A DNA stretch of 20,840 nt from Candidatus Micrarchaeia archaeon. Lineage in GTDB: Archaea > Micrarchaeota > Micrarchaeia > Anstonellales > J096. The stretch is taken from contig JBGQMY010000022.1 in assembly GCA_041500865.1 (NCBI GenBank), positions 1 to 20,840 on the forward strand, given 5' to 3'. Positions 118 through 19,982 of this stretch are shown here, one piece after another (within the stretch, counting starts at the first letter, position 1; the number at the start of each line of letters is the position of its first letter). The notes beneath the pieces are model-generated. The model did not search any database and had not been told where the DNA came from. It saw nothing but the letters and a program-made list of their open reading frames with translations. A program made the translations under genes and the position numbers.

Positions 118-140
118 TTGTGCGGCAAAGGTGTTAAAAA
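118..140 (-). promoter_or_regulatory. Conserved TATA-like + TTTGCCGCACAA element, copy 1
   Basis: Minus strand reads TTTTTAA-CACC-TTTGCCGCACAA-TAAAGGC-ATG; matches copies at 14540-14562 and 15854-15876. Confidence 0.7.
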
Positions 141-195
141 ACATCGCTGGGCTCTGCCCGTTACCATTTTAAATGATGCCTCTGATATGCTTCCG

Positions 196-1365
196 ATGGT
201 GCCCCTGACAAGGAAGTACATGCCGAAATCCGTATCAGACATCATAGGCAACGCAGACGTCAGGGAGGCTGCGCGCAAATGGGTTGAGGCCATCCTCAGC
301 GGCAAGAAAGAGAAGCCGCTCATGGTGGGTGGGCCCTCGGGCGTAGGAAAGACCAGCCTCGCATATGCGCTTGCAAAGGACTTCGGCCTTGAGATGCTCG
401 AGATTTCGTCAAGCGGGCTGAGGGACAAGGCAACGCTTGAAAGGAACATAAGGCCGGCGTTCTTCTCAAAAACAGTTTTCGGCAAGAAAAGGATTATCCT
501 TGTTGACGACGCGGATGCGATGACAAAGGACGACAGGGGAGGCATAAGCGAGCTTGTTGAGCTGATAAAGAATGCGAGCTTACCGGTCATAATAACGGCA
601 AACGACACGTCGGAGCCCAAGCTAAGGCCCCTCAGGATGTACGTGAAAACGGTCCAGATGAAGCGCATCGCGCCATCCGAAGTCGCAAACGTCCTCCGCG
701 ACATAGCGAAGAAGGAAAAGCTTGACGCAACCGAGGGGGCGATAATGAAGATAGCCGCAGGCTGCTCAGGCGACTTGCGCTCCGCGCTCAACGACCTGGA
801 GGCAACGGCGTCCGGCATAAGGGACAGGAAGATAGACGACAAAAGCGTATTGAAAACAATTTTCAGGTGCTCCACGCTTTCAGGGGCGCGTTATGCCTCG
901 TCCGTCATGGACATGGACACTGACATGCTGAAGCTCTGGCTTGACGAGAACATAGCCAGGGAATACGAGACGCCGGAGGAAATCGCGGAGGCGTTCAACT
1001 GGCTGTCAAGGGCGGATGTCTTTGACGGAAGGATATTCAAGAGGCAGTATTACGGGTATATGCGTTATTCGGTTACGCTGATGACCGCAGGCGTGGGATT
1101 GAGCAAGAGGCACGTGTACAACAAGCCGATTGAAAACTACCAGTTCCCGCTTTACCTGGTTGAGATGAGCCGCTCAATGGCAGCAAGGGCGATGGCGAAA
1201 TCGGTCGCACTGAAAATAGGGAAAAGGGTCCATACTTCGTCAAAAAGGGTGCTGCCGTTCCTGCCCCTGTACGCAAAGCTCATTTCAAGGGAGCCGGAAA
1301 AGGCGAAGATATTTTACACGTTAAGCGATGAGGAGATGGAGCACCTGGCGTCGCTTGCAAATTAA
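196..1365 (+). CDS. rfcL: Replication factor C large subunit (clamp loader)
   Basis: N-terminus MVPLTRKYMPKS resembles the RFC box W.EKYRP; Walker A GPSGVGKT; Walker B ILVDDAD; PVIITAND; GDLRSALNDL; large-subunit C-terminal motifs WLDENI, LSRADVF and YMRY. Start moved to ATG 196 (TTTTAAA at 167-173). Confidence 0.92.
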   Translation: MVPLTRKYMPKSVSDIIGNADVREAARKWVEAILSGKKEKPLMVGGPSGVGKTSLAYALAKDFGLEMLEISSSGLRDKATLERNIRPAFFSKTVFGKKRIILVDDADAMTKDDRGGISELVELIKNASLPVIITANDTSEPKLRPLRMYVKTVQMKRIAPSEVANVLRDIAKKEKLDATEGAIMKIAAGCSGDLRSALNDLEATASGIRDRKIDDKSVLKTIFRCSTLSGARYASSVMDMDTDMLKLWLDENIAREYETPEEIAEAFNWLSRADVFDGRIFKRQYYGYMRYSVTLMTAGVGLSKRHVYNKPIENYQFPLYLVEMSRSMAARAMAKSVALKIGKRVHTSSKRVLPFLPLYAKLISREPEKAKIFYTLSDEEMEHLASLAN

Positions 1366-1381
1366 TATTCATGGTGAAGTG

Positions 1382-2107
1382 ATGGCAGCAATGAAAGGGG
1401 ACGGGCCGCACAAAATGGACGAGGCCCACAAGGTCGGCATGGGCCGCATGTTCCGCAACCTAATCCTCGGCGGGCAGGACGGCATAGTGAATGTCCTTGG
1501 CATAGCGCTGGGCGTCGCGACAGCGACAAGCTCCAGCCACATTGTGCTGCTTGCAGGCCTTGCAGCGACGTTCGCCGAAAGCGTCAGCATGGCGGCTGTA
1601 GCCTACACGTCCACGCGCGCAGAGGCCGAACACTACGAATCAGAGCGCAAAAGGGAAGACAGGGAAATTGACGAGGTCCCATTGAACGAAAAAAAGGAGA
1701 TAGAGGAAATTTACCGGAAAAAGGGTTTCAGCGGCAGCTTGCTGAAAGGCATCGTTGACAGGATAACGTCCGACCGCAAGGTATGGCTGGAAACGATGAT
1801 GCGCGAGGAATTAGGGCTTGAGAACCCGAGCGAGGGCATGTCGCCGTTCTGGCAGGCGGCGCTTGTCGGCGGCAGCGCACTGATTGGCTCGTTCGTCCCG
1901 ATACTGCCGTTCTTCTTCCTGACGGTGCAGGCCTCAATCCCGGTATCGCTGGCAGCCTCGCTGGCGCTCCTTTTCATCATCGGCGCGTACAAGAGCAGCG
2001 AGACGTCGGGGAAGTGGCTGAAGGGCGGCATTGAGCTCATGGTCATAGGCGGAGTTGCGGCGCTTGCGGGATACGCGGTGGGCCTGTTCTTCCAGGCGCC
2101 CGTCTAA
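1382..2107 (+). CDS. VIT1/CCC1 family iron/manganese transporter
   Basis: ILGGQDGIV and AESVSMA motifs, Glu-rich cytosolic segment (EREDREIDEVP...MMREELG), about 5 TM helices; start at ATG 1382 after GGTGA. Confidence 0.9.
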   Translation: MAAMKGDGPHKMDEAHKVGMGRMFRNLILGGQDGIVNVLGIALGVATATSSSHIVLLAGLAATFAESVSMAAVAYTSTRAEAEHYESERKREDREIDEVPLNEKKEIEEIYRKKGFSGSLLKGIVDRITSDRKVWLETMMREELGLENPSEGMSPFWQAALVGGSALIGSFVPILPFFFLTVQASIPVSLAASLALLFIIGAYKSSETSGKWLKGGIELMVIGGVAALAGYAVGLFFQAPV

Positions 2108-2117
2108 TAAACCGTTC

Positions 2118-2410
2118 CCAGCCCCATTAAAAAAGCGCATTGGCATTCTTATGAATTTAAAAACTTTTTTAGCCATTTATGGCAACAAGTGATATTATGG
2201 CTGAGCAAATGATGAAGAAGCACCCTAATGCATGGCGCAGATTGATTAGATGGAGGCATGAATGCTCCAAGTTTCATTGCGTGTCATGGAGCCCAGGTGC
2301 CTGTATGGGCTGCGATTCGCCTTCCAGCCCCTTGATTACCGGTTTGCCGGCAGGACGCCATGGGAAAAATAGGGTTCACTGAGCCGTCCGTCGTCCAGCC
2401 CCATTAAAAA
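2118..2410 (+). repeat. 16-bp direct repeat CCAGCCCCATTAAAAA flanking a small ORF
   Basis: Exact copies at 2118-2133 and 2395-2410; partial copy (TTCCAGCCCC) at 2322-2331. Confidence 0.8.
2179..2382 (+). CDS. Small hypothetical protein with four Cys (C-x4-C-x7-C-x2-C)
   Basis: 67-aa ORF; TATA-like TTTAAAAA at 2156-2163; no recognised family; start could be 2179 or 2197. Confidence 0.4.
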   Translation: MATSDIMAEQMMKKHPNAWRRLIRWRHECSKFHCVSWSPGACMGCDSPSSPLITGLPAGRHGKNRVH

Positions 2411-2452
2411 GCTTTCGGAGCTATATTTGGCAGAAAGCGTTAGGGAACCGGT

Positions 2453-2470
2453 CAACGTTTTTAAACGTTG
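2453..2470. promoter_or_regulatory. Palindrome CAACGTTT-TT-AAACGTTG overlapping the TATA box of the tRNA-Ser/ribosomal protein operon
   Basis: Perfect 8-bp inverted repeat; TTTTTAAA at 2458-2465 lies about 30 nt upstream of the tRNA. Confidence 0.5.
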
Positions 2471-2490
2471 CCCACAATAAAGATAATCTC

Positions 2491-2605
2491 GCCGGGGTGG
2501 CGGAACCTGGTTAACGCGTACGCCTGGAAAGCGTATGCCCGCAAGGGCTCATGGGTTCAAACGTTATTGGCGCATAGCCTTTAGCTGAAATTCCCATCCC
2601 CGGCG
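2491..2605 (+). tRNA. tRNA-Ser(GGA) with 30-nt intron (2562-2591) in the T-loop, position 59/60
   Basis: Acceptor GCCGGGG/CCCCGGC with G discriminator; anticodon arm TACGC-CT-GGA-AA-GCGTA; long variable arm GCCC-GCAA-GGGC; T arm ATGGG/CCCAT. Removing 2562-2591 restores TTCAAAT, and the junctions form a BHB. No encoded CCA. Confidence 0.95.
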
Positions 2606-2625
2606 TTCAAAGTCATGGTGATTGG

Positions 2626-3345
2626 ATGGCGTCAAAGGAGAAAAAGCAGGAAGAGGAAAATGCTGACAAAAAGGAAGCCCCAGCCGAGGCAAAGGAGCAG
2701 AAGCCGCACAAGAAGGAAGCGAAAGAAGCCCACAAGGAGGCCCCGAAGCACGACATAAGAGGAACAAAGAAGGGCATCGTCAGGATTGCGGGAAAGGACA
2801 TGGGCGGCGACACCAGACTCAAGAACGCTGTCCTAAGGATAAGGGGCATCGGCCATTCTCTCAGGAACGCTGTAACAAGGCTCATTGAGAAGAAGCTTGG
2901 CATAAGCCCGGAGGTCCAGATAGGCGACCTTTCGGACGAGCAGATAGCCAATATTGACAAGGTGCTTTTCGGCATAACAAGCAACGACCTGCCGAAGTTC
3001 CTGCTGAACAGGCAGAGCGACCCTTCAACAGGGGAAAGCAAGCAGATGATAATGAACGACCTTGCGTTCGTGCTCAGGCAGGACCTGGAAGGCAAGAAGA
3101 AGAACAGGACATGGCAGGGATTCAGGGCGCTGAAAGGCAAGAAAGTCAGGGGACAAAGGACAAGGAACACCGGAAGGAAAGGCCTTACCATGGGAGTCAT
3201 GAGGGAAAAGCTCAAGCCAGGCCAGCTTCCTGAAGAAGAGGGCGGAAGGGGCGCCAGGCAAAGGGCATCCTCGTCTGGAGCGGCCCCGGCAGCTCCGGCT
3301 GCTGCGGCCCCTGCGGCTGAGAAGAAGCCTGCGGAGAAGAAATGA
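2626..3345 (+). CDS. rps13: 30S ribosomal protein uS13 with N- and C-terminal low-complexity extensions
   Basis: IVRIAGKD, IRGIG, LLNRQSDPSTGE, WQGFRALKGKKVRGQRTRNTGRKG; first gene of the S13-S4-S11-RpoD cluster. Confidence 0.96.
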   Translation: MASKEKKQEEENADKKEAPAEAKEQKPHKKEAKEAHKEAPKHDIRGTKKGIVRIAGKDMGGDTRLKNAVLRIRGIGHSLRNAVTRLIEKKLGISPEVQIGDLSDEQIANIDKVLFGITSNDLPKFLLNRQSDPSTGESKQMIMNDLAFVLRQDLEGKKKNRTWQGFRALKGKKVRGQRTRNTGRKGLTMGVMREKLKPGQLPEEEGGRGARQRASSSGAAPAAPAAAAPAAEKKPAEKK

Positions 3346-3357
3346 GGGTGAACGCTT

Positions 3358-3933
3358 ATGGGCGATCCTAGGAAAATAACGAAGAAATACAAGAAGCCGA
3401 AAAAGCTGCTCGACAAGACAAGGGTCGTCGAGGAGGGCAAGCTGAAAAGGGAGTACGGGCTCAAGAACGCGCGAGAGCTGTGGATTGCGCAGTCCGAGCT
3501 TAGGCGCGTGAGGCGCGAGGCAAGGAAGCTGCTCGCCCTTTCCGAAGAGGAGAGGAAGAAGGGCGCTGCCGTCGTGCTCGGAAAGCTCGAGAGGATGGGC
3601 ATACTTGCAGGGGACGCGACGATAGACAACGTCCTTTCGCTTACAGTGAGGAATTTCCTTGAAAGGAGGCTGCAGACGATTGTATTCAGGAAGGGCATGG
3701 CAAGGACGCCTGTCCAGGCAAGGCAGCTGATAACGCACGGCTACATTGCAATTAAAGGAAGAAGGATAACGTCCCCCGGAACAACGGTGACGCGCGCAAC
3801 TGAGGGGGACATCGCTTACTACAAGCCGATAGACATTTCCGTTCCGGAAAAGGAAGAGCCTAAGCCTGCGGAGGCGCCGGCAACAGAAGCGCCGGCTGCC
3901 GAAGAGCCGAAGAAGGAGGGTGAATCCCAATGA
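3358..3933 (+). CDS. rps4: 30S ribosomal protein uS4
   Basis: [44 protein letters not shown]. Confidence 0.97.
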
Positions 3934-4319
3934 GCAGCAACAGGGTCGCGATAATCTACATCTACTCGTCAAAGAACGACACGATAATGACGTCAACGGA
4001 CCTGAGCGGCTCCGAAACGCTGACTTGGGCGTCGGGCGGCATGATGGTCGACTCCTCAAGGGAGGAGGGAAGGCCGTATGCGGCCATGAGGGCCGCGCAG
4101 AAGATATCTACCGATTTGAAGGAGAAAGGCATATCCAACGTCATCATAAGGATAAGGGGCCAGGGCGGAAACAAGGCCAAGTCTCCCGGCTCGGGAGCGC
4201 AGGCCGCAATCAGGATGATATCAAGGTCCGGCCTGTCCATAAAGAGGATAGAGGACGTTACTCCGCTTCCTACCGATTCCATGAGGAAGAAGGGCGGAAG
4301 AAGGGGAAGGAGGGTCTGA
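3930..4319 (+). CDS. rps11: 30S ribosomal protein uS11
   Basis: [52 protein letters not shown] overlap with rps4. Confidence 0.97.
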
Positions 4320-4323
4320 TTAC

Positions 4324-4899
4324 GTGAAAATCGCGAACTATTCCGAAAAGGGCGGGAAGGTCTCCTTTGACATAGCGGACGGCGACGTTAAGCTTGCCAA
4401 CACCCTGAGGAGGTACCTCATAAACGGCGTTCCTGTCTATGCGATAGACAAAATCGTGGTTTATGAGAACACGACCTCATTCTTCGACGAGTACATCGCG
4501 CACAGGATAGGCATGATACCGCTTACCACGCCGGAAGCGGACATAGACCCCGAGAAAATAGGGTTTTACCTTGACTTTGCCGGGCCTGGAACAGTGTATT
4601 CCAAGGACATCAAGAGCAACAGCGAGGCCGTGAAGGTCGCAATAGACGACATACCCATCATAAGGCTTCTGGAGGGCCAGGTCCTGCGCATTGAGTGCAA
4701 GGCAAAGAAGGACACGGGCAGGGAGCATGCCAAGTTCCAGTCCGGCATAGCGTCCTACGACATCGACGAGAAGGGGGCAATCCACTTCTGGGCGGAGAAC
4801 ATGCACCACATGGAAACGTCCGAGCTCATAAGGCGCGCGCTCAAGAAGATGGACGCGGACTTCAAGTCGCTTCACGAAGCGATAAAGGAAGCGAAATAG
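4324..4899 (+). CDS. rpoD: DNA-directed RNA polymerase subunit D (Rpo3), short form
   Basis: ANTLRR, ENTTSFFDEYIAHRIGMIPL, GPGTVYSKDI, IPIIRL..GQ, GREHAKFQ; GTG start; conserved position after rps11. Confidence 0.95.
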   Translation: MKIANYSEKGGKVSFDIADGDVKLANTLRRYLINGVPVYAIDKIVVYENTTSFFDEYIAHRIGMIPLTTPEADIDPEKIGFYLDFAGPGTVYSKDIKSNSEAVKVAIDDIPIIRLLEGQVLRIECKAKKDTGREHAKFQSGIASYDIDEKGAIHFWAENMHHMETSELIRRALKKMDADFKSLHEAIKEAK

Positions 4900-4934
4900 G
4901 TTTTTTAACTGTTTTCCTTATTATATGATATTAG

Positions 4935-5020
4935 GCAGGGATCGCCAAGCATGGTCAAAGGCGCTAGGTTGAGGGCCTAGTCTCCATTGGGGTTCGTGGG
5001 TTCAAATCCCACTCCCTGCA
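4935..5020 (+). tRNA. tRNA-Leu(GAG)
   Basis: Acceptor GCAGGGA/TCCCTGC with A discriminator; anticodon arm CTAGG-TT-GAG-GG-CCTAG; long variable arm; GTGGG-TTCAAAT-CCCAC; no intron. Confidence 0.96.
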
Positions 5021-5021
5021 A

Positions 5022-5044
5022 TAGGCTTTTTCAAAAAAAGCCTA
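5022..5044 (+). terminator. Inverted repeat / T-tract directly after tRNA-Leu
   Basis: TAGGCTTTTT (5022-5031) pairs with AAAAAGCCTA (5035-5044). Confidence 0.5.
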
Positions 5045-5184
5045 GGGAAAAACCGACTGTGTTTTTCTTCACCCCAAAAGAAACTACTTTAGAAGAAAAA
5101 GAATCTCCCTGCGGAAAGAAAACTACTTTTGGAAGGATTGCCCGAATGTGTGAAATTTAAAAACCCTGCATCGGATATGTTGAC

Positions 5185-5634
5185 ATGAAACTGGCAATCG
5201 TTTCATTTGCAGCGTTGCTTCTCATGGCATCGTCCCTTTGTGCCAACATAACCAATGCATCCGGGGCTGCCAATCCCACGGCGCCCATGGACTGGAAAAT
5301 GGCGCTTCTTGCTGTTTCCATAGTGTTCATAATAATCGCAATCATAATATTCTTGCTTACTGGCAAAAAGGAGCAGCTGCACGAGGCGGCAGTTGAAGGC
5401 AACAGGGGGCTTTCCGAGGACGAGGACAGGTTCCTGCTCATCCTTTACGAGAACGAGGGCACAATCGGGCAGGCTGAGCTAAGCAGGCAGTCATCCTGGC
5501 CCGAAGCAAAGGCAAGCCTGCTCGCAAAGTCTCTTGAATCCCAAGGCTACGTGAAAAGGATAAGCAAAGGAAGAAAAAGCATAGTGAAGGCGACAGAAAA
5601 GGGAAACGCCTTCAACCGGCAGAGGCGCCAGTGA
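5185..5634 (+). CDS. Membrane-anchored winged-HTH protein (COG2512-like)
   Basis: Signal-peptide-like N-terminus, short linker with NIT/NAS sequons, TM helix, then LSEDE..L..L..NEG.IGQAEL...AKAS.L...LE.QGYVKR...GR, typical of the C-terminal HTH of this archaeal family. Confidence 0.75.
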   Translation: MKLAIVSFAALLLMASSLCANITNASGAANPTAPMDWKMALLAVSIVFIIIAIIIFLLTGKKEQLHEAAVEGNRGLSEDEDRFLLILYENEGTIGQAELSRQSSWPEAKASLLAKSLESQGYVKRISKGRKSIVKATEKGNAFNRQRRQ

Positions 5635-5647
5635 ATACCACAACATA

Positions 5648-5817
5648 AGGCGCCAAAATGCTTTCTTTTGAACCCGGGGCTTTTGCGCCAGCAGGCGCCT
5701 AAATGCTTTTTTCTTTCCCGTGGACGGCTTTCTTTTTCGCAAAAAGAAAGGGGCCATTCCAGGTCCGCAGACCAAAATGAAGGAAGGTTGACCGTTAAGG
5801 GAACCTTGGTTCCCTTA
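5648..5817. repeat. Structured intergenic region: direct repeat and two inverted repeats
   Basis: AGGCGCC[A/T]AAATGCTTT starting at 5648 and 5693; CTTTCTTTTT-CGC-AAAAAGAAAG (5728-5750); TAAGGGAACC-TT-GGTTCCCTTA (5796-5817). Confidence 0.7.
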
Positions 5818-5864
5818 CGATTTGGGCAAAAAGTTATAAATAGGGAAAGAGGCAACACACCTGC

Positions 5865-6158
5865 ATGGATGCCAGGTCGCGCCTGCTGTATTGGATGCTG
5901 GAGGCGTCAAGGGGCGGGCCCACGCGGCGCAGGATAATAAGGGCATTGCACAAAAGCCCGTCCAACATGCACCAGCTTGCAGTGTCGCTGGATTTGGACT
6001 ACAAGACCGTGCAGGGGCACGTGGAAACCCTTGCCGAAAACGGCATAATATACAGGATGAAGGAAGGCTACGGGGCCGTGTATTTCATAAGCCCGGAGTT
6101 TGAAGGCAATGATTACATGAAAAAGGCTTTGGGGAGTGGTGAAAATGGGGACGAATGA
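5865..6158 (+). CDS. ArsR-family winged-helix transcriptional regulator
   Basis: RLLYWML..SRGG.TR.RII..L...P.N..QLA..L.LDYKTV..H...L.EN.I......YGAVYF.S matches a common archaeal ArsR subfamily; TATA TTATAAAT near 5834. Confidence 0.88.
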   Translation: MDARSRLLYWMLEASRGGPTRRRIIRALHKSPSNMHQLAVSLDLDYKTVQGHVETLAENGIIYRMKEGYGAVYFISPEFEGNDYMKKALGSGENGDE

Positions 6159-6585
6159 GAAAGGCGGGAAAACGGCTACTGAAAAGCCAAAGAAAGACTA
6201 CACGGCTGCTGCCGCGCTAGGCACTTTGGGAATAATAGTTGCATCCATCGCTATGATAGCGGTCACTGACCTGCTTTTCCCGTTCTGGCGCGGGCCCATA
6301 AGCGACATGCTGATGTTCCTTGCTATGAACGCCGTCTCCATGCTCATGCTCGCGCTCTCCGTCTTCCTCACGTTCATTTACCTGAAGGACTACCTTGAGC
6401 TGAGGAGCGGGTTCACGTTCGGCATACTGATGGCAGTAGTGTCGTTCATGCTGTTCGCGATAACGTCAACGCCGCTGCTGTACTGGTTCATGGGGATTTA
6501 CGGCAGGACCGGCATGTTCTCAGTGGTGCCTTACGTGTTTGCGACCATATCGCTTGCAATACTGGCATGGCTGAGCTCGAAATGA
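6145..6585 (+). CDS. Four-TM membrane protein, likely partner of the ArsR regulator
   Basis: Four hydrophobic segments; IYLKDY..LRS.FT.G motif; overlaps the ArsR stop; start 6145 (ATG) or 6136 (GTG). Confidence 0.75.
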   Translation: MGTNEKGGKTATEKPKKDYTAAAALGTLGIIVASIAMIAVTDLLFPFWRGPISDMLMFLAMNAVSMLMLALSVFLTFIYLKDYLELRSGFTFGILMAVVSFMLFAITSTPLLYWFMGIYGRTGMFSVVPYVFATISLAILAWLSSK

Positions 6586-6662
6586 GGGGAGATTTGGGTA
6601 TTAATCCGGCAAACCCTTTTATAGCCGCGGAAAGGCATTTGTTTTAGGACTGTGTTTTTGCT

Positions 6663-6683
6663 GGGCGGCGGAAGGCGCCGCCC
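6663..6683 (+). promoter_or_regulatory. GC-rich hairpin in the probable 5' leader of the ABC operon
   Basis: GGGCGGCG-GAAGG-CGCCGCCC between TATA-like TTTTATA (6617-6623) and ATG 6706. Confidence 0.4.
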
Positions 6684-6705
6684 GCACAAAACTTAAAGTG
6701 ATGTT

Positions 6706-7422
6706 ATGGCTTCGCTGATAGAGCTTTCGAATGTTTCCAAGTCATACGACGGGGGCAGCCCATTCCTTGCGTTGAAAGGCGCAAGCTTCAGGGTCAATGA
6801 GGGCGAATTTGTTTCAATCATAGGGCAGAGCGGAAGCGGAAAAAGCACGCTGCTCCACATATCAGGGCTGCTTGACAAGCCCAGCTCCGGCACCGTGTCC
6901 TTTGACGGAAACGTTGTGTCAAAAATGCCTGAAGACGGGCTTGCGATGATACGGAGGGACAACATAGGGTTCGTGTTCCAGGCGTTCAACCTGTCCGCGA
7001 ACATGAGCGTCTCGCGCAACGTGGAGCTGCCGCTAATGATTAAGGGCGTTCCGGCCCCGGAACGCAGGGCAAAGGTGGAGAAGACCCTTGCCATGGTCGG
7101 CATACTGGACAAGAAAGAGCGCATGCCTTCCGAGCTCAGCGGCGGGCAGAAGCAGCGCGTCGCGATAGCCAGGGCGCTTGTCACCAATCCGCGCATATTG
7201 CTTGCGGACGAACCGACGGGAAACCTTGACTCCGTAACAGGGACGGCGGTGCTTAGCTTCATATCGTCCTTGCATAAGGACCTTGGCATAACAGTCATAC
7301 TTGTGACGCACGACCATATGGTGGCGTCCCTTGCAAACCGGACCATACACATAAAGGACGGCATGATAGACAAGGACGTCACCAAGCCGCAGCGCGCAGC
7401 TGTCAATAATAAGGAGGAATGA
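6706..7422 (+). CDS. ABC transporter ATP-binding protein (LolD/MacB/SalX type)
   Basis: Walker A GQSGSGKST, IGFVFQAFNL, signature LSGGQKQRVAIARAL, ILLADEPTGNLDS, VTHD. Confidence 0.95.
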   Translation: MASLIELSNVSKSYDGGSPFLALKGASFRVNEGEFVSIIGQSGSGKSTLLHISGLLDKPSSGTVSFDGNVVSKMPEDGLAMIRRDNIGFVFQAFNLSANMSVSRNVELPLMIKGVPAPERRAKVEKTLAMVGILDKKERMPSELSGGQKQRVAIARALVTNPRILLADEPTGNLDSVTGTAVLSFISSLHKDLGITVILVTHDHMVASLANRTIHIKDGMIDKDVTKPQRAAVNNKEE

Positions 7423-9059
7423 ACAATATGAACAAAATAAAATGGTTTGCCGCATTCGCGGCGGTTTTGCTTGTCGGGCTTGCGGCTGCCGCAACCACGG
7501 CATCAACGAGCACCAGCACATCAACGGATACGGGCGGGGCCACCGTGCAGGTTTCCGGCTATTCAACGATACCGGACACCGTTTACAGCGGCTCGTACGC
7601 CCAGCTGAAGCTGGACATAGGCAACGCCGGGACAGAGACCGCGCAATCCACCACCATCTATTATTCGTACGGGACTGAGGACAATTACATGAGCGTGGGG
7701 GACATAGGCCCGGGCTCGTCCACGATAACGGCGTTGCCTTTCCACATCCCTGACGGGTATGAAGGCGGGGTTATCATCATTTATCTCAGGATATCCTGCC
7801 AGGATTCCTCAGGAATACATACTACATACGCATCCATACCGGTAAGCATATCCGGTAGGAACGACGTATCCGCCAACGTTCTGGACGCAAGCCCATCGGA
7901 AATATATCCAGGTGACTCGCTTTCGGTCAAGCTTTCGCTGAAGGACATAGGCGGGAACGACATAAGCGACGTGGCCATTGAGCCTTATCCTGATTCCGGG
8001 TTTTTCCTTAACGGGACATCCGCGATACAGCTGGGAGAAATGAAAGACGGGGAGGAACGCAACGTGTCGCTTGCGCTCGTGCTTTCATCGCCTTCCTCCT
8101 ATGGAAGGCAGATGGTGCCCATCCTTTTGACGTATGAGGACGCGCTGCACAACAGGGCGAACGAGACGGTTTATGCGGGGCCGATTGGCATAATGAGGTC
8201 CAACACAAAATGGGCCCTTTCGCTTTCTCCGGCAACGCCCGTGGAGATAGGCTCAGGGGCCGTTTTCTCCCTTTCAATCAAGAACAGGGGCGCAGACCCC
8301 GATTCCGCGGTCGTGGACATAGGCAGCGGGAACGAGTTCATGCCGCTCGGCTCGTCAAAGATATACTTTGACAACGTCGGGCCGGGCGAGACCCGCAACA
8401 CGAATGTCACAATCGGCATAAGCCCAAGCGCGGCTGCAGGATACTACGACCTGCCTGTAAGCATCCTTTCGGGAAACGACCAGTCGTGGAACGGGAGCGT
8501 GGGCGTGCTCGTACAGGCGACCCCGGAATTGACGATAAGCAACGGCCAGACGCTGACGCCTGGAAGCGAGGCCAAGGTGTCCATAAAGATAGCCAACACT
8601 GGCAACTCCGCAATACGCAGCGCGTATGTGAGCGTGGAGCCCAAGGCAAACAGCGGCCTTAGGGTCACCGCTTCAGCAACGGAGTTCATAGGCACGCTGA
8701 ACGTGGACGACTCCTACACGGCACAGCCCACGGTTTCTGCGCCTTATGCGACTGGAAGCTATCCTCTTTTGGTGACAGTGACATTCAGGGACAGCATGAA
8801 CCAAGAAAAGATTGTGACAAAGGAGCTTGATATCGTTGTAGGCAGCTCAACAGACGCTTCATCTGCCGGATCAAGCGGCAACATGAACGGCGGCCCAGGC
8901 CAGTTTAGCAGGAATTCCAGCAGCGGCATCCGGGTTTTTGGGATTGACATAATTCCCATAGCTGCGATTGCCGTTGTGCTTGGCCTGGCATACTTTGTCT
9001 GGATTAAGAAATTCAGGCGCAAAAAGGAAGATCCAAAAAAAGAGGAGCAGAGGAAATGA
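7419..9059 (+). CDS. COG1361-type S-layer-domain/CARDB-like surface protein with signal peptide and C-terminal TM anchor
   Basis: Signal peptide, Thr/Ser linker, repeated Ig-like units (L.I.N.G...A; G.YdL.V.I), C-terminal TM plus basic tail; lies between ABC ATPase and permease with ATGA overlaps. Confidence 0.8.
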   Translation: MNNMNKIKWFAAFAAVLLVGLAAAATTASTSTSTSTDTGGATVQVSGYSTIPDTVYSGSYAQLKLDIGNAGTETAQSTTIYYSYGTEDNYMSVGDIGPGSSTITALPFHIPDGYEGGVIIIYLRISCQDSSGIHTTYASIPVSISGRNDVSANVLDASPSEIYPGDSLSVKLSLKDIGGNDISDVAIEPYPDSGFFLNGTSAIQLGEMKDGEERNVSLALVLSSPSSYGRQMVPILLTYEDALHNRANETVYAGPIGIMRSNTKWALSLSPATPVEIGSGAVFSLSIKNRGADPDSAVVDIGSGNEFMPLGSSKIYFDNVGPGETRNTNVTIGISPSAAAGYYDLPVSILSGNDQSWNGSVGVLVQATPELTISNGQTLTPGSEAKVSIKIANTGNSAIRSAYVSVEPKANSGLRVTASATEFIGTLNVDDSYTAQPTVSAPYATGSYPLLVTVTFRDSMNQEKIVTKELDIVVGSSTDASSAGSSGNMNGGPGQFSRNSSSGIRVFGIDIIPIAAIAVVLGLAYFVWIKKFRRKKEDPKKEEQRK

Positions 9060-10306
9060 ACATACAGGACCTTGCGTCGATAGCCGTTGACACGCTGCGC
9101 CACAGGAGCCTGCGCAGCTGGCTTGCCATACTCGGCATCGTGATAGGCGTTGCCGCAGTCGTCACGCTGGTTGCGATAAGCTTCGGCATGAGCGACAGCA
9201 TAAGCAGCAGTCTGAACACGCTTGGCACCAACATAATCTCCATAAGCCCTGGCGGAACATCCACTGAAAGGATCGGCATGATGGCAGGAGGGGGTTTTTC
9301 GGGGGACGGGGGACCCCCGGATTCCGGTTTCCAGACCAGGCAAACAAGCACCATAACATTCACTGAGGCTGATGCTTTGCGCACGGTAGCTGGGGTGAAC
9401 TCGCTTGACGCCCAGGTCTCAGGCCGTGCCGAAGTGGAATATTCAGACATGAAGTCGTCCGTGACTGTTGTGGGGACAGAGCCGCGCGAGTTCCCGAAGA
9501 ATGTGGGCGTCAATTTAAGCGCAGGCAAGTTTCTGGGCACGGGCGACGTGTATACTGCTGTCATCGGCGCCTCAGTCGCAAACCGCACGTTCAAGGGGGC
9601 AGACATGCTAGGCAAGCAGATAAAGATAGGCGGCCTGGCGTTCAGGGTCGTGGGAATCCTGAACTCATCCGGCTCGTCCTCGTTCGGCAGCTCGGACAGC
9701 AGCGTATACATACCGCAGAAGGCCGCGAAGGCCCTGCTTAACCAGACAAAGGACGTGAGCAAGATAGTTGTTATAGTGGCAGACGGATATGGCACTGCGG
9801 CCGTTGCGAAGAGCATGACAGAGGCGCTTGAAGCGCTCCATGGGATAACCGACAGCAGCAAGGACGATTTCACTGTCACCACGGCAGAATCCATGCAGGC
9901 CACGGTTTCCGCGATGACGAGCACGCTTACGCTGTTTTTGGGCGGGATTGCGTCGGTCGCCTTGATTGTCGGCGGGATTGGCACGGCAAACACGATGTTC
10001 ATGAGCGTGCTGGAGCAGACGCGGCAAATCGGCGTCTACAAGTCCCTTGGCATGACCGGCCCGGACGTGCTGATGCTGTTCGTGATTGAGGCGTGCATAA
10101 TCGGCACCGTCGGCGGGGTTTTGGGCGTGTTCTTGAGCTTCATAATCTCATCAATTGTCACGAGCCTCGGCCTTGCGGTTAACATAACGCCCGTGCTTGC
10201 CCTTTTCGGCGTGGCGTTTTCCGCAGTCGTCGGAATAATCTCCGGGGTCATACCTGCGCGGAACGCATCGTCCATACCGCCGGTTGAGGCGCTGAGGTAT
10301 GAATGA
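9056..10306 (+). CDS. ABC transporter permease (MacB/FtsX family)
   Basis: RSWLAILGIVIGVAAVV, large extracellular loop, VGGIG.ANTMFMSVLE.TR.IG..K.LG, PARNAS...PVEALRYE. Confidence 0.95.
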   Translation: MNIQDLASIAVDTLRHRSLRSWLAILGIVIGVAAVVTLVAISFGMSDSISSSLNTLGTNIISISPGGTSTERIGMMAGGGFSGDGGPPDSGFQTRQTSTITFTEADALRTVAGVNSLDAQVSGRAEVEYSDMKSSVTVVGTEPREFPKNVGVNLSAGKFLGTGDVYTAVIGASVANRTFKGADMLGKQIKIGGLAFRVVGILNSSGSSSFGSSDSSVYIPQKAAKALLNQTKDVSKIVVIVADGYGTAAVAKSMTEALEALHGITDSSKDDFTVTTAESMQATVSAMTSTLTLFLGGIASVALIVGGIGTANTMFMSVLEQTRQIGVYKSLGMTGPDVLMLFVIEACIIGTVGGVLGVFLSFIISSIVTSLGLAVNITPVLALFGVAFSAVVGIISGVIPARNASSIPPVEALRYE

Positions 10307-10318
10307 GCGCGGATTTAA

Positions 10319-10511
10319 AATTCAGATATTCTTTTAAACAGTTTTATAAGAGATAATATTGACATGCCGGTTCTTGGGATATTTTTCGCGAAGAACAAGA
10401 ATAAATTCAATATGCAACTGCTCAAAAAGCTGGCAAAAACGTATTATGGGAAAGGAATGGCTGGGCTGGACAAAAAACGAGTTTTACGGCAAGATGGGGG
10501 AATTTGAATGA
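10319..10511 (+). pseudogene. Probable remnant of the upstream partner gene of the nucleotidyltransferase
   Basis: One frame reads DILLNSFIRDNIDMPVLGIFFAKNKNKFNMQLLKKLAKTYY; the +1 frame ends GWTKNEFYGKMGEFE* with an ATGA overlap onto the next start (10508). Reads like a 5'-truncated, frameshifted C-terminus; family match is from memory only. Confidence 0.4.
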
Positions 10512-11260
10512 CAGAAAAATTCACGAAGGGCGATTTGGAAGGCGAATTCGGAAAGATAGGGGGAAGAATACGGGGAAAGGTTGAGGTTTTCCTGCTGGGG
10601 GGCGGCGCCATGTGCTTCCGCAACCAGAAGAACGCAACAAAGGAATTGGATTTGGTGTTCAGGGATGCAAATGGCCTCAATGCCTTCGTAAAGGCGATAG
10701 CCAAGTTAGGCTTTTCCGAGCCAAAAAGGATAGAAACGGAATATGCGGAGATGAAAGCCTCCGGAATCTGGAAAAACAGGGATGGCTTAAGGCTGGATTT
10801 GTTTGTCGGCAAGGTCTGCGGGGTGCTTGAGCTTTCAGAATGGATGGCGTCCCGTTCAGAACTGCTTGGAACCTACGGGAATATGGCAGTGAAGATGGTT
10901 TCAAACGAGGATGTGATCCTTTTCAAAGGCATAACTGAAAGGGCTGACGACGCAGATGACATTGCGGCGATAATCCGCACTTCAAGGATAAAATGGGACG
11001 TTGTGCTTGCGGAATGCGCCGCCCAAAGCGAGGCAAAGGCGTGGTATGTCGCGCTTTACAACAAATTGGTTGAATTGGAGGAGATGCACAAGATAACCGT
11101 TCCGATAGCAAGGAGGCTGAAAAAGCTGGACAGTGCGGCGATACTGAAGGAAGCTTATGCAACCCGCATCAACAGGGGATTAAGCCGCAAGTCTGCAGTT
11201 GAAGAGCTTATTAAAATCGGATTTACGAAAGAAGAGATAGGGAAAGCGATAAAGGAATAG
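10508..11260 (+). CDS. DUF6036/AbiEii-like nucleotidyltransferase
   Basis: VFLLGGGAM...K.ATKELDLV, RLDLF, S.ED..LFK.IT.R..D.DD motifs of the Pol-beta-superfamily nucleotidyltransferases. Confidence 0.8.
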   Translation: MTEKFTKGDLEGEFGKIGGRIRGKVEVFLLGGGAMCFRNQKNATKELDLVFRDANGLNAFVKAIAKLGFSEPKRIETEYAEMKASGIWKNRDGLRLDLFVGKVCGVLELSEWMASRSELLGTYGNMAVKMVSNEDVILFKGITERADDADDIAAIIRTSRIKWDVVLAECAAQSEAKAWYVALYNKLVELEEMHKITVPIARRLKKLDSAAILKEAYATRINRGLSRKSAVEELIKIGFTKEEIGKAIKE

Positions 11261-11299
11261 GCAAGCCCCAATCTCCCCACTTTCTAAATGGGCCACGGC

Positions 11300-11386
11300 T
11301 CACTTCTTCTTTTGGGGAAGCCTCTTTCTCGGCAACCCGAACAGGTCGTACAGCTTGGTTCTTATCTTTATTTCCGGAAGTTTCAT
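11300..11386 (-). CDS. Putative 28-aa basic peptide
   Basis: Manual translation MKLPEIKIRTKLYDLFGLPRKRLPQKKK*; starts 4 nt after the stop of 11391-11693 with SD-like GAGTGA. Confidence 0.4.
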   Translation of the reverse strand: MKLPEIKIRTKLYDLFGLPRKRLPQKKK

Positions 11387-11390
11387 GTCA

Positions 11391-11693
11391 TCACTCTTTT
11401 GTTGTTCCCCTTTCTATCAGCCCTTTCAGGGTCGGGCGCAACAGCAGCCCCTGGACGAATGCGCCTATGAAATTCGTTTCAAACAGGATGCTCAACAAGC
11501 CCCCGATGAAACAGAAGAACAGCACATAATGGATTTTTTCCAGGTAAGGATTTTCTATGTTCTCCGATGTTTCCTCTATCTTCACAAAACCGGATTTTAC
11601 CACGGCAAAATAAGTGAGGGCGCCTATCGCTCCGAGCACGAACCTAAAAACCACTATTGAATTTGCCAGTATATATTGGCTAATGGCATCCAT
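11391..11693 (-). CDS. Small hypothetical membrane protein (about 3 TM)
   Basis: Hydrophobic G-rich helices; AT-rich; TATA-like TTTATAAA about 25 nt upstream on the minus strand. Confidence 0.7.
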   Translation of the reverse strand: MDAISQYILANSIVVFRFVLGAIGALTYFAVVKSGFVKIEETSENIENPYLEKIHYVLFFCFIGGLLSILFETNFIGAFVQGLLLRPTLKGLIERGTTKE

Positions 11694-11806
11694 TGTATCT
11701 TATTTTTCATTCGGGTAGTTTATAAATATTCCTGTTTCTGGAAAAGGACGCGCTCAGGCAAAGGCCCAACGAACCTTTAAAACCCTTATACTTTCTATAA
11801 AGGGGC

Positions 11807-13414
11807 ATGGAGCCAAATCCCCAAGACCCCCCGAGAGACATGAACAAGGATTTCAGGGAGCACTCAGTAGCGGAATTCTTCAAGAAAAACAAGCACATGC
11901 TCGGCTTCTCAGGAAAGACAAGGAGCCTCACCACTATCATTCACGAATACATGACAAACTCGCTTGACGCATGCGACGAGCACGGCATACTCCCGAACAT
12001 CAGGATAGAGGTAACGGAAATGGGGGAAGAACGGTACAGGGTCGTTGTTTCTGACAATGGCCCCGGCATGCCGAAATCCATCATCGGCAAGGCGCTGGGC
12101 AAGATGCTGGCAGGGACAAAATTCCACCGCTACATGCAGCAAAGGGGCCAGCAGGGCATCGGCGCAACAGGATGCACGATGTACGCGCAGATAACGACCG
12201 GAAAAGCCGTCCATGTCCTATCGGCGCATAAGGGCAAGGCCATATCCTGCGACGTTAAAGTGGACTTGAAAACCAACGAACCGATAATAGAGAACATGGC
12301 GGAGCAGGACGCGTCATACAGCGGGCTCACGGTGGAGGCGGAGTTCGGCGAAGTCAAGTTCGACAAGGGCGCATACGGCGTCCTGGAATACGTCAAAAGG
12401 ACCGCGATAGCGAACCCGCATGCGCAGATTGAGCTGATAGCGCCGGGAAACGAGGTTTACAGGTTCGCAAGGTCCGTTGACGCTGCCCCGAAAAGGCCGA
12501 AGGAGGTACAGCCGCATCCGCTTGGCATAAGCACTTACGATTTGCAGGCGATGGCGCACGGCGCAAAGGAAGCGAAGCTTTCGGCGTTCCTTACTGAAAA
12601 TTTCACCAGGTTTTCCGCGCAGAAGGTGCAGGAGCTTAAGGGACTGACTGACATTGACTTCAGCAAGAGCCCAAAGGAACTGTCATGGGAAGAATCAGAG
12701 AAGCTGGTCAATGCCATCCAGAAGCTGAAATGGATAGCCCCTCCATTGGACTCTGTCATACCGATAGGCAAGGAGCAGATAGAAAAGAGCATGAAGAACG
12801 TGCTTGAGCCGGAGTTCGTGAACGTCGTTGAACGGAACATACAGATATATTCGGGCGGCATACCATATGCAGTGGAGGTCGGCATAGCGTTCGGCGGCAA
12901 AATCAACGAGAAAAAGGGCGAGATATACAGGTATGCGAACCGAACCCCGCTCATGTTCGACGCATCAGGATGCGCAATCGTCGAATCGGTAAAGGAGATA
13001 GACTGGAAGAGGTACGGCATTGACATGGAGAACGACCCTGCCGTGATTTTGGTTAACGTGTCAAGCGTGCACATACCCTACGTCGGGGCAGGCAAGCAGG
13101 CCATATCCGACATAGATGAGGTAAAACAAGAGATAAAGAACGCGATAATGGAGTGCGCAAGGGGCATCAAGATGAGCCTCGGAAGGAAGAGAAAGGCCGG
13201 CGACATGGAAAAAAGGAAGACTGCGCTGATGAGATACATCAAAAGGCTCAGCGAGGACCTGGCAAACCTCTCAGAGGAAAGCAGCAAGGCCGAGCTGGAA
13301 AGGAAGCTTACGCATATCATAGAGACGAAATATGCGGCGGATATGGACGAAGAAGAGGAAAAGCCCGCAGAAAAGAGCGGAGGGGAGGAGAATGGCAACG
13401 GAGAAGAGGAGTGA
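11807..13414 (+). CDS. top6B: DNA topoisomerase VI subunit B
   Basis: SVAEFFKKN, GHKL motifs EYMTNSLDAC / SDNGPG / RGQQGIG, NPHA, PHP.G, RYANRTPL. Confidence 0.97.
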   Translation: MEPNPQDPPRDMNKDFREHSVAEFFKKNKHMLGFSGKTRSLTTIIHEYMTNSLDACDEHGILPNIRIEVTEMGEERYRVVVSDNGPGMPKSIIGKALGKMLAGTKFHRYMQQRGQQGIGATGCTMYAQITTGKAVHVLSAHKGKAISCDVKVDLKTNEPIIENMAEQDASYSGLTVEAEFGEVKFDKGAYGVLEYVKRTAIANPHAQIELIAPGNEVYRFARSVDAAPKRPKEVQPHPLGISTYDLQAMAHGAKEAKLSAFLTENFTRFSAQKVQELKGLTDIDFSKSPKELSWEESEKLVNAIQKLKWIAPPLDSVIPIGKEQIEKSMKNVLEPEFVNVVERNIQIYSGGIPYAVEVGIAFGGKINEKKGEIYRYANRTPLMFDASGCAIVESVKEIDWKRYGIDMENDPAVILVNVSSVHIPYVGAGKQAISDIDEVKQEIKNAIMECARGIKMSLGRKRKAGDMEKRKTALMRYIKRLSEDLANLSEESSKAELERKLTHIIETKYAADMDEEEEKPAEKSGGEENGNGEEE

Positions 13415-14519
13415 AAAAAGGAACGAGGACCAAAAGGCCTACGATAACCTCGTAAACCTTGGAAAGGACATGGTCAGCGAGGTCGACAGGGACACCACGC
13501 CTACTTTTGAGACTTCGTTAAGAGGCAAAAGCAACATACTTTTCGACAGCAAAGACGGATACCTGAAACTGGGCGACAAGACTGAAACAAGGAAGTTCAT
13601 GAATTTAGGGCAGGCAAGGACATTCATGCAGACGATAAGCATTGCAAACAAATTGAAGCAGTTTATACGCGAAGGCCTGCACACCAGCATCAGGGGCCTT
13701 TATTACCAGATGAAGTTCAGCTTGGGCGACGACTTAGATGAAAGCCTGTTTGAGGAACAGAGCGAGTCAAACGTGCTTGTTGAGGATTTGGAGGTCGCGA
13801 TAGGCGCGAAAAGGGAGGACTTTCATTTAACGACAGACAGGAAGGGCGTGCTGGCCGGAAACATAAAGCTGATTGACAGGTTCGGCGGCGAGGAGATAAC
13901 GATAGACGGGACGAAGCAGGGAAGGAGCGGCTGGATGATTCCGAGCGACGTGGACAACGGCATGGAAATAGAAAGCGTGAAGGCGGACTACGTGCTTGTA
14001 GTTGAAAAGGACGCGCTCTGGCAAAGGCTCAACGAGGACAGGTTCTGGCAGAAGGAAAAGGCCATACTCATAACGCCAAAAGGCCAGAGCTCAAGGGGAA
14101 CAAGAAGATTGATACGGAAGCTGGCTGACAAGGGACTGCCGGTTTACGTCTTCACGGACTGCGACGCCTGGGGATGGTACATCTACTGGACTTTGAAAAC
14201 AGGCTCGATGAATCTTGCGTATTTGGGAAAGGAGTTCAGCATACCGAATTCACGGTTTATAGGCGTGACGATGAGCGACATTGACCGTTACGAGTTTTTG
14301 CAGAAATTGACAATAAACGCAAAGGAGCTGGACATCAAGAGGGCAAAGGAGATGATGGAGTATCCCTGGATAGCCAAGCATCCTGAGTGGGTAAAGGAGC
14401 TGAAGAAGGTCCTGGACACGAAGAAGAAGATAGAGCAGGACGCTTTGCAGGGGCAAAGATTGACGTTCGTCAGCGAGTACGTCAGGGACAAGATAGAGCA
14501 CAACGAAGTTTTACCGTAG
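13392..14519 (+). CDS. top6A: DNA topoisomerase VI subunit A (Spo11 family)
   Basis: Catalytic RGLYY, F.EQ.ES...VEDLE, Toprim VVEKDA and DCDAWG, K.EQDA; start ATG 13392 after GGAGGAG, 23-nt overlap with top6B. Confidence 0.97.
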   Translation: MATEKRSEKRNEDQKAYDNLVNLGKDMVSEVDRDTTPTFETSLRGKSNILFDSKDGYLKLGDKTETRKFMNLGQARTFMQTISIANKLKQFIREGLHTSIRGLYYQMKFSLGDDLDESLFEEQSESNVLVEDLEVAIGAKREDFHLTTDRKGVLAGNIKLIDRFGGEEITIDGTKQGRSGWMIPSDVDNGMEIESVKADYVLVVEKDALWQRLNEDRFWQKEKAILITPKGQSSRGTRRLIRKLADKGLPVYVFTDCDAWGWYIYWTLKTGSMNLAYLGKEFSIPNSRFIGVTMSDIDRYEFLQKLTINAKELDIKRAKEMMEYPWIAKHPEWVKELKKVLDTKKKIEQDALQGQRLTFVSEYVRDKIEHNEVLP

Positions 14520-14539
14520 ATTCAGCTCCTGCGGCGCTA

Positions 14540-14562
14540 TTTTTAATTCCTTTGGCGCACAA
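14540..14562 (+). promoter_or_regulatory. Conserved TATA-like + TTTGGCGCACAA element, copy 2
   Basis: TTTTTAA-TTCC-TTTGGCGCACAA-TGAATCT-ATG(14570). Confidence 0.7.
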
Positions 14563-14569
14563 TGAATCT

Positions 14570-15346
14570 ATGCAGAAAAATCGGCTCCAAAGAAATATGC
14601 GGGCAAAGGAACAAGCTCAAATCAAAGTTGGCATTATCCCAAGCGGTAAGCTGGCAGCATTGCCAGCAAGTAAACAAAAACAATTCAATGATATGCTTAT
14701 CCATGCAGCCTTCAATGGCGACAATGACGAAATAAGGCGGCTCATCAAGGCAGGCGCAAACATAATGGCAACAGATGAGTGCGGAGAGACAGCCCTGCAT
14801 AACGCTGCATGTATGGGATATATAGAAACCTGCGCCATGATTATATCTGAATACGCAAATTCGGTCGGAGACGTAAAGAAACTGATTGCCGCAAAGAATC
14901 ATAAAGAAGATGAAAACGATGAAGAAGAAGAGGATGGAGGCAATACTGCCCTGCATATAGCTGCATATAACGGATACGTTAAGGTATGCAGACTGCTCAT
15001 AGATGAATACGCAAAAGCAGGGGGAAACGTAAAGAAACTGATTGCCAAAACGAATGATGGATTTTCAACAGCCCTTCACGATGCCGCAACCAACGTCAAC
15101 AGACCCAACAGCGAATCTAAAATTTGCGCTTTGCTGATTGAGAAGTATGCAGAAGCAGGCGGCGAGGTAAGAAAGCTCATTGCCATAAAGGATGTATGGG
15201 GAAGGACAGCCCAGCAAAGAGCTGATGGAAATGAATGCATTAAAACGGCTAAGTTCCTAAAATCAATAAAAAAATTAATAAGAATAATGGAAAAGGAGGC
15301 ATTGGGTTCATTTATGAAGTCTTTCACCGAGTGTGTTGCCGCCTAA
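14570..15346 (+). CDS. Ankyrin-repeat protein (258 aa)
   Basis: LIHAAFNG...LIKAGANI, GETALHNAA.MG, GNTALHIAAYNG, STALHDAA, GRTA; start set at 14570 by the upstream element and to avoid overlapping top6A. Confidence 0.9.
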   Translation: MQKNRLQRNMRAKEQAQIKVGIIPSGKLAALPASKQKQFNDMLIHAAFNGDNDEIRRLIKAGANIMATDECGETALHNAACMGYIETCAMIISEYANSVGDVKKLIAAKNHKEDENDEEEEDGGNTALHIAAYNGYVKVCRLLIDEYAKAGGNVKKLIAKTNDGFSTALHDAATNVNRPNSESKICALLIEKYAEAGGEVRKLIAIKDVWGRTAQQRADGNECIKTAKFLKSIKKLIRIMEKEALGSFMKSFTECVAA

Positions 15347-15347
15347 C

Positions 15348-15845
15348 TTATAGACCAACGCATTCCGAGAAGCTGGGCAGGAAATATTTGAATTGTTCCC
15401 TGCCAGTCAGCCACGACAGGAGCCCTGCATAAAAAAGGAAATCCGCTGTTTTTTGGCATTCTCCTGAACGTCTGCCATAGCCCATTCCTGATTTGGCAAA
15501 TCTTAGCGCAGAGTTACCGGAGTCACTTTTTTCATCCAGGTTTGCGCCGTTTGCAAGCAGGAATACGCATACATCGGTGCGCCCGTAAAATGCGGCCATC
15601 ATAAGCGGCGTTATGCCAACAAAGGCATTTATGTTGACATTGGCGCCGGCTGAGACAAGCTCTTTTATGCGTTCCCAATCTCCAGATTGGGGATCGTTGT
15701 TGAACTTAGACTTTATCATGCCGGCAAGCTCTTGATTAAGCCTGATCTCTGATACCGCGCGTTCCGGGCTAAGCTTTTTCAGCAATAGGATTGATTTTTT
15801 TGCAATGCTCTTGGCCCTTTCGCGGAACGTCCTGCGCTCTGCCAT
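15348..15845 (-). CDS. Ankyrin-repeat protein (165 aa)
   Basis: LVSAGANVN, GITPLMMAAFYGRTDVCVFLLANGANLD, GNSALRFA; convergent with the previous gene, stops 1 nt apart. Confidence 0.9.
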   Translation of the reverse strand: MAERRTFRERAKSIAKKSILLLKKLSPERAVSEIRLNQELAGMIKSKFNNDPQSGDWERIKELVSAGANVNINAFVGITPLMMAAFYGRTDVCVFLLANGANLDEKSDSGNSALRFAKSGMGYGRRSGECQKTADFLFYAGLLSWLTGREQFKYFLPSFSECVGL

Positions 15846-15853
15846 GCCTCCTT

Positions 15854-15876
15854 TTGTGCGGCAAACAGGTTAAAAA
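15854..15876 (-). promoter_or_regulatory. Conserved TATA-like + TTTGCCGCACAA element, copy 3
   Basis: Minus strand TTTTTAA-CCTG-TTTGCCGCACAA-AAGGAGGC-ATG(15845). Confidence 0.7.
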
Positions 15877-19971: not shown

Positions 19972-19982
19972 TGTCAAAAACC

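Follow-up and report, generated by a model that had tools for sequence, protein, structure and literature searches.

A promoter element shared by an expanded ankyrin gene family in a Micrarchaeota genome, probably copied together with its genes

The window analysed here (20,840 nt, contig JBGQMY010000022.1) is contig C22 of a 36-contig, 1.04-Mb Micrarchaeota genome (G000, completeness 92%), and it carries three copies of an upstream element, consisting of a TATA box, a 4-nt spacer and a 12-nt box, each placed just ahead of the start codon of an ankyrin-family gene. Relatives of the window's top6B gene were nearly all Micrarchaeota records among the 80 matches listed. A sequence-only reading of the window had reported the three copies, and a pattern scan located them exactly, at 118-140 (minus strand), 14540-14562 (plus) and 15854-15876 (minus), with the ATG 7, 7 and 8 nt past the element, respectively. 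No fourth match was present in the window with up to 3 mismatches allowed, and shuffled sequences gave a mean of 0.05 matches, with 0 of 100 shuffles reaching three. Copy 1 (118-140, minus) heads a gene start that is cut by the contig end, leaving the first 36 codons with a basic leader (3-110, minus). Copy 2 has its TATA box at 14540-14546 (plus), -30 to -24 from the ATG, and its box at 14551-14562 (plus), made up of a T-run at -19 to -17, a weakly constrained GC core and CAYAA at -12 to -8; it precedes a 258-aa ankyrin gene (14570-15346, plus; Pfam) encoding a basic leader, ankyrin repeats and a tail ending F-x-x-C-V-A-A. Directly upstream, 14529-14539 (plus) partially matches, by eye, the end of an intergenic repeat family found ahead of several ankyrin promoters. 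Copy 3 (15854-15876, minus) precedes a 165-aa ankyrin gene (15348-15845, minus; Pfam) with a basic leader, an ankyrin core and a two-helix tail ending F-x-x-C-V-G-L, and the two complete genes converge across a 1-nt gap.

Window bases 1-141 are identical to bases 1-141 and 31686-31826 of contig C13, an overlap common to both C13 ends that holds copy 1 and stops 1 nt upstream of its TATA box. The gene start at 3-110 also heads a 248-aa ankyrin protein at one C13 end. Copy 1 and the two C13 matches are therefore one 141-nt sequence and not three independent observations, and either C13 has identical ankyrin 5' ends on its two flanks or it is part of an assembly loop.

Across G000, a scan allowing up to 3 mismatches returned 72 element matches, 15 of them exact, and 69 of the 72 have an ATG 6-9 nt downstream. 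Judged by eye from the translations, 58 of these 69 precede genes of the ankyrin family, or fragments or relics of such genes, and the remaining 11 precede different genes. Promoters were then compared among genes with a TATA box starting at -29 to -32 from an in-frame ATG (82 ankyrin, 214 other); the ankyrin starts in this set, 82 of the 116 called ankyrin genes, are thus picked for having a TATA box, and gene denominators are approximate because the G000 gene set (1,088 genes) came from a simple caller of our own. The box within 2 mismatches occurs in 39 of the 82 ankyrin promoters versus 7 of the 214 others, and the enrichment search proposed in the sequence-only reading accordingly ties the element strongly to the ankyrin class. 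Among the seven non-ankyrin carriers, one is an ankyrin fragment, two come immediately after the stop codon of an ankyrin gene, and the leaders of the others are ankyrin-like or basic. The element is not common before housekeeping genes, so the ankyrin association is real. Scores of ankyrin promoters are graded broadly, from no resemblance to a perfect match.

The position of the TATA box implies leaderless mRNA, as the sequence-only reading had argued, and transcription would begin at or just before the A of the ATG. With the ATG taken as a proxy for +1, ankyrin promoters have A at frequencies of 0.74 at -11 and 0.84/0.82 at -9/-8, and a pyrimidine at 0.95 at -1. The 214 non-ankyrin TATA-led genes carry a weaker form of the same skeleton, with T at 0.57/0.47 at -19/-18, C at 0.41 at -12, A at 0.58/0.58 at -11/-10 and a pyrimidine at 0.83 at -1, and a T-run follows the TATA box in 19 of 30 TATA-led tRNA promoters. 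The CAYAA position (-12 to -8) is the place of the archaeal promoter-proximal element in the cited sections of PMC5316973 and PMC2151090.

The main relatives compared were two congeners (G001 and G002, the latter with a completeness of 86%) and a member of another genus (G008), of which part of each genome was covered, with ankyrin loci chosen from Pfam match lists. G000, G002, G005 and G008 have one TBP gene and one TFB gene each (two repeats), and in G001 the TFB match is split over two contigs. A promoter class read by alternative TBP or TFB proteins of the haloarchaeal type was considered and rejected, as no paralogs occur in G000, G002, G005 or G008. The sigma domain PF04542 gave one weak, below-cut-off match in G000 and none in the motif-bearing G002 or in G001, G005 and G008. 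The G000 TFB (C15, L169 1474-2793, minus) is 439 aa long with a Lys/Arg-rich N-terminal extension of roughly 135 aa; a similar extension is present in G002 (L168) and absent in G005 and G008, where TFB is about 300-310 aa.

Constraint on individual sites was estimated from parsimony changes on a protein tree of 50 tail-bearing ankyrin paralogs, a noisy tree, being one of repeat proteins. The lowest counts per site were 3 for TT, 5.5 for AA, 6 for A-11, 9 for C-12 and 11 for G-13, while unconstrained positions gave 21/22/16 (-16 to -14), 18 (-10) and 18.5 and 16.4 (the spacers), against 16.6 at four-fold degenerate sites. What is constrained in the family is TT (-19/-18), CA (-12/-11) and AA (-9/-8), the positions at which other G000 promoters peak. 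The earlier statement that the box is kept while the spacers differ thus describes the three window copies but does not extend to the family, in which site changes contradict it. Core identity among paralog pairs tracks protein identity, from 0.34 to 0.61, with TT and AA holding at 0.76-0.96. In comparisons of G000 with the covered part of G002, core identity is 0.64 for 9 ankyrin best-hit pairs, whose four-fold sites are at 0.60, and 0.66 for 41 non-ankyrin pairs, whose four-fold sites are at 0.47.

We consider it probable, with appreciable doubt remaining, that a single ancestral ankyrin gene had the element as its ordinary leaderless core promoter, and that gene and promoter were copied together as the family grew to more than 100 members. 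The single TBP would bind the TATA box, and TFB with RNA polymerase would read the T-run and the A-rich melting zone. The unit copied would begin with the TATA box and end with the stop codon, its spread being due to tandem duplication, to unequal recombination and to dispersal into intergenic spacers; its 5' module, made up of promoter and basic leader, would now and then be swapped between paralogs and onto other genes. The GCCGC filling of the box would be ancestral sequence under near-neutral drift, probably re-spread by recombination. Co-duplicated promoter DNA had been listed as a caveat in the sequence-only reading, and it is the account that fits best.

The explanation put first in that reading was an operator, in which a homodimeric transcription factor on a TTG-N5-CAA dyad between TATA box and start site would repress an ankyrin regulon. 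Archaeal repressor sites often overlap the polymerase footprint, as the proposed dyad does by its position; its outer TT/AA pairs are conserved and the exact box recurs across the protein tree. The dyad itself is present in just 22 of the 82 ankyrin promoters, however, and its pairs are complementary at 0.79/0.69/0.38 versus 0.78/0.67/0.31 expected from column frequencies (n=68). Its inner bases, G-16 and Y-10, change at neutral rates, its outer pairs coincide with general promoter peaks, and the box is not kept in every relative with ankyrin genes (1 of 26 promoters in G001 and 0 of 19 in G008, within 2 mismatches). No DNA-binding protein was recognised among the genes behind the motif, read by eye and, for 9 of them, scanned (no full transcription-factor inventory was made). 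We regard the dyad operator as very unlikely. The link to a gene class, in other words, survives from the regulon proposal and the dyad does not, which leaves some probability to a weaker reading as a class-specific promoter.

Under that weaker reading, a selected TTT-N3-GCAYAA form would switch ankyrin genes and other basic-leader accessory genes together, the agent being a non-dyad activator or the basal machinery itself (TFB with its basic extension) and the trigger, for example, host contact. Several observations count against simple co-duplication or in its favour. GCAYAA occurs in 42 of 82 ankyrin promoters versus 9 of 214 others and 1 of 30 tRNA promoters. On the protein tree, the 11 genes with the exact box do not cluster (10 changes versus 10.1 when shuffled), so simple recent duplication of a clade is insufficient, and recombination or some selection is needed. 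A B-recognition element rich in A (BRE; at least 2 A at -6 to -3 from the TATA box) is found in 25 of 82 ankyrin versus 116 of 214 other promoters (p=0.0003). With thresholds chosen post hoc, basic hydrophilic leaders occur in 7 of 22 non-ankyrin skeleton genes versus 14 of 191 and, under the same caveat, matches in the covered part of G002 were found for 5 of 23 non-ankyrin skeleton genes versus 93 of 191 (p=0.015). All 12 box bases of a presenilin/SPP gene agree between G000 and G002, but full agreement is also seen in 4 of 68 non-ankyrin pairs, and 8 of the 68 retain at least 11 bases. SPP as a true regulon member was set aside as unproven, its G001 ortholog having another promoter and its orthologs in other genera lacking the box. 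At the top6A-DUF530 site of the related locus L010, 11 of 12 box bases are retained before the ankyrin ortholog, while 3 of 4 spacer bases differ. The moderate constraint on G-13 and C-12 (11 and 9 changes versus 16.6), the long TFB extension in G000 and G002 but not G005 or G008, and a cupin gene that has an ankyrin-type promoter and leader in each of G000 and G002, the leader subtypes differing, also suit a class-specific promoter.

Against it, ankyrin promoter scores are broadly graded, and G001 has a similar ankyrin expansion with the core largely lost. BRE poverty is explained by the upstream DNA, which is often a neighbour's stop codon (39 of 82), and among non-ankyrin genes there is no trade-off between BRE and skeleton (rho 0.01), so that the idea of BRE compensation was dropped. 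The chimeric genes are explained by capture of the 5' module without co-regulation. Because of the sharpness of GCAYAA, the scatter of the exact box, the L010 box, the BRE poverty and the enrichment of basic leaders, we keep the class-specific promoter as an unlikely reading that still deserves some weight.

Allowing at most 1 mismatch, the motif with ATG was found 46 times in G000, 11 times in G002 and twice in G001, and 16 further genomes of the family had none; when the ATG was not required, a search of 41 genomes gave 0-2 matches in each of the other 38. Ankyrin Pfam matches number 93 and 95 in the congeners and 73 in G008. Among the TATA-led ankyrin genes covered, the box within 2 mismatches is present in 13 of 45 in G002, 1 of 26 in G001 and 0 of 19 in G008. 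The covered G001 DNA is more AT-rich, with the TT...A frame kept in 15 of 17 promoters and core GC down to 0.34, and several G008 ankyrin genes share a purine-rich promoter of their own; each lineage therefore has its own family promoter. Further ankyrin enrichment was seen in other Micrarchaeota lineages (42 Pfam matches in G020, 25 in G030, 19 in G018 and 12 in G023), the two genomes with 42 and 25 matches belonging to another family.

The unit that would be copied can be followed at its borders. A TATA box begins within 6 nt after a stop codon in 26 of 115 ankyrin genes versus 34 of 952 others, and for 37 ankyrin genes the next gene is a co-oriented ankyrin gene. Between top6A and DUF530 the window has two ankyrin genes, L010 has one, orthologous to the 165-aa gene, and L009 has none; L009 and L010 may belong to the two congener genomes themselves, and we do not treat them as independent of these. 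In contigs of runs X2 and X4, neither of the two ankyrin genes is present at this site. In L010 (4619-5563), top6A is truncated where the 3' end of the ankyrin gene meets it, through an assembly error or a real break. Arrays on G000 contigs C1, C2, C15 and C25 include some promoterless members that start 0-4 nt past the previous stop, and GG-rich codons in the preceding tails could act as ribosome-binding sites for them.

Such borders, at TATA box and stop codon, together with presence and absence between relatives, could also point to an element that doubles as the site-specific recombination site of integron-like ankyrin cassettes. Of the 72 G000 contig ends, 10 fall within ankyrin-family ORFs, and the intergenic repeat family (16 of 21 matches intergenic) ends beside several ankyrin promoters. 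Yet the tyrosine recombinase PF00589 has no match in G000 (92% complete) and is present in 14 of 14 control genomes; the nearest candidate is a 31-aa Y1-transposase-like match at the end of contig C4. Host genes downstream of ankyrin cassettes mostly keep their own promoters, no common target sequence was found in the compared junctions (relatives' sequence was found for 14 of 29 host genes), and the element lies at an ordinary promoter distance from the ATG. We give a recombination site hardly any credence. Insertion exactly at host TATA boxes was also tried and set aside: some cases abut a TATA box, but no general rule emerged. The intergenic repeats themselves lie at about 5030-5140 of the window and at least 16 intergenic sites (e.g. 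C7 4811, C10 22639-22704 and C29 1421), and consist of hairpin-like A/T tracts with a GC-rich end, often adjoining ankyrin promoters or stop codons.

A profile constructed from the ankyrin repeats detected 118 ankyrin ORFs in G000, 116 of them among the 1,088 called genes (about 11%), and Pfam Ank_2 gave 113 matches. Their N-termini are basic, with a median net charge of +6 per 30 residues versus +1, and a hydrophobic N-segment is present in 2 of 113 proteins, the remainder having mostly a basic leader. Of 115 complete ankyrin ORFs, 89 have a conserved two-helix tail ending F-x-x-C plus 2-10 residues; the Cys is four residues from the end, in a CaaX-like register, in 53 of 115 (e.g. CVAA, CISQ and CIGQ) and 3 or 5-11 residues from the end in 36 others. 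The residue before the last is mostly A, G or S in G000, and G008 relatives have a related Cys tail that runs about 14 residues beyond the Cys. A model of the 165-aa protein built from 49 sequences (pLDDT 90.8) matches canonical ankyrin folds, mainly designed ankyrin proteins (best E 3e-4), with no structure match specific to the leader or tail. The model of the 258-aa protein, made without an alignment (pLDDT 41.6), was not used. An Atlas search with the tail gave one match at 0.93, to a 28-aa cluster, with all other leads below 0.9. Leader and tail profiles found no non-ankyrin carriers except ankyrin fragments and one uncalled frame. Scanning metagenomes for orthologous loci yielded 2 ankyrin stretches, both unrelated, and no promoter of the five close homologs (P0002-P0006). 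The ankyrin-type promoter and basic leader were seen by eye on a cupin, on two proteins resembling methyltransferases (recognised by Pfam in one case and by eye in the other) and on one unannotated protein, at G000 C13 22697 (plus), C12 25008 (plus), C17 6451 (plus) and C8 near 17960 (minus). Promoter and basic leader might, in a rather improbable extension of these observations, form an exchangeable module for expression and export, by which more than 100 ankyrin binders and captured enzymes (cupin, methyltransferases) would be co-expressed and delivered to a host.

Two further features of the window were recorded. The weaker look-alike that the sequence-only reading had noticed before a tRNA-Ser is present at 2458-2477 (plus), with spacing 3 nt shorter, its CAA being nearer the TATA box; it would serve as the promoter of a probable intron-containing tRNA-Ser. 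An apparent tRNA-Ser(GGA), its T arm enlarged by an insertion of about 30 nt, was read by eye at about 2491-2605 (plus), while ARAGORN and Rfam called only tRNA-Leu (4935-5020) in the window and not tRNA-Ser(GGA). The gene at 17551-20055 (minus) encodes a protein of 834 aa that is rich in Cys, has a lipoprotein-like signal and matches SLT transglycosylase weakly, below the cut-off (E 6e-4).

The motif itself is of an ordinary kind. It is a clear example of a gene family passing on its promoter, warns that shared upstream DNA need not mean a regulon, and offers, from sequence, a first view of leaderless promoters in this lineage of Micrarchaeota. The ankyrin library matters more than the motif, being of amoeba-parasite scale in the 1-Mb genome of a symbiont-type archaeon; if the ankyrin proteins act on a host, host manipulation by DPANN archaea becomes directly testable. 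Our literature search, whose coverage largely excluded subscription journals, found no description of this promoter or of such an ankyrin expansion in Micrarchaeota, and none of a eukaryotic host for Micrarchaeota.

Among known systems, the archaeal leaderless core promoter is described in the cited parts of PMC5316973 and PMC2151090 as a BRE, a TATA box, a pyrimidine at -1 and, at -11/-10, an A/T-rich element called promoter-proximal or 'WW'. The element agrees with it in where the TATA box lies, in being A-rich at -11/-10 and in its pyrimidine at -1, and differs in being poor in the upstream A-rich BRE, in its sharper GCAYAA and in being repeated dozens of times with one gene family. For the library, the sections cited from PMC4378268 count 126 ankyrin proteins in Babela massiliensis, 79 of them with predicted signal peptides, and 94 in Amoebophilus, whereas a 2014 survey, in the part cited, gives ankyrin proteins in 15 of 133 archaeal strains, with more than one in four species (PMC3932732). 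G000 resembles the amoeba-associated bacteria in ankyrin number and in its genome of about 1 Mb; unlike Babela, it is an archaeon whose ankyrin proteins mostly have basic leaders and rarely a hydrophobic N-segment. Legionella AnkB has a CaaX end farnesylated by the host, according to the portion cited of PMC5506055. The G000 tails share the Cys four from the end in about half of the ORFs; they differ in a varying Cys register, in a penultimate residue that is mostly A, G or S and in the longer G008 tails. Within the improbable export-module reading above, a Babela-sized library and a Cys-ended tail would be compatible with a eukaryotic (protist) host. Multigene families with a co-inherited 5' region evolve by unequal crossing-over and gene conversion. 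The ankyrin family is like these in its tandem arrays, dispersed copies, mosaic 5' modules and lineage-specific promoter variants, and unlike them in a unit trimmed from TATA box to stop codon, the next TATA box often lying 0-4 nt past a stop codon.

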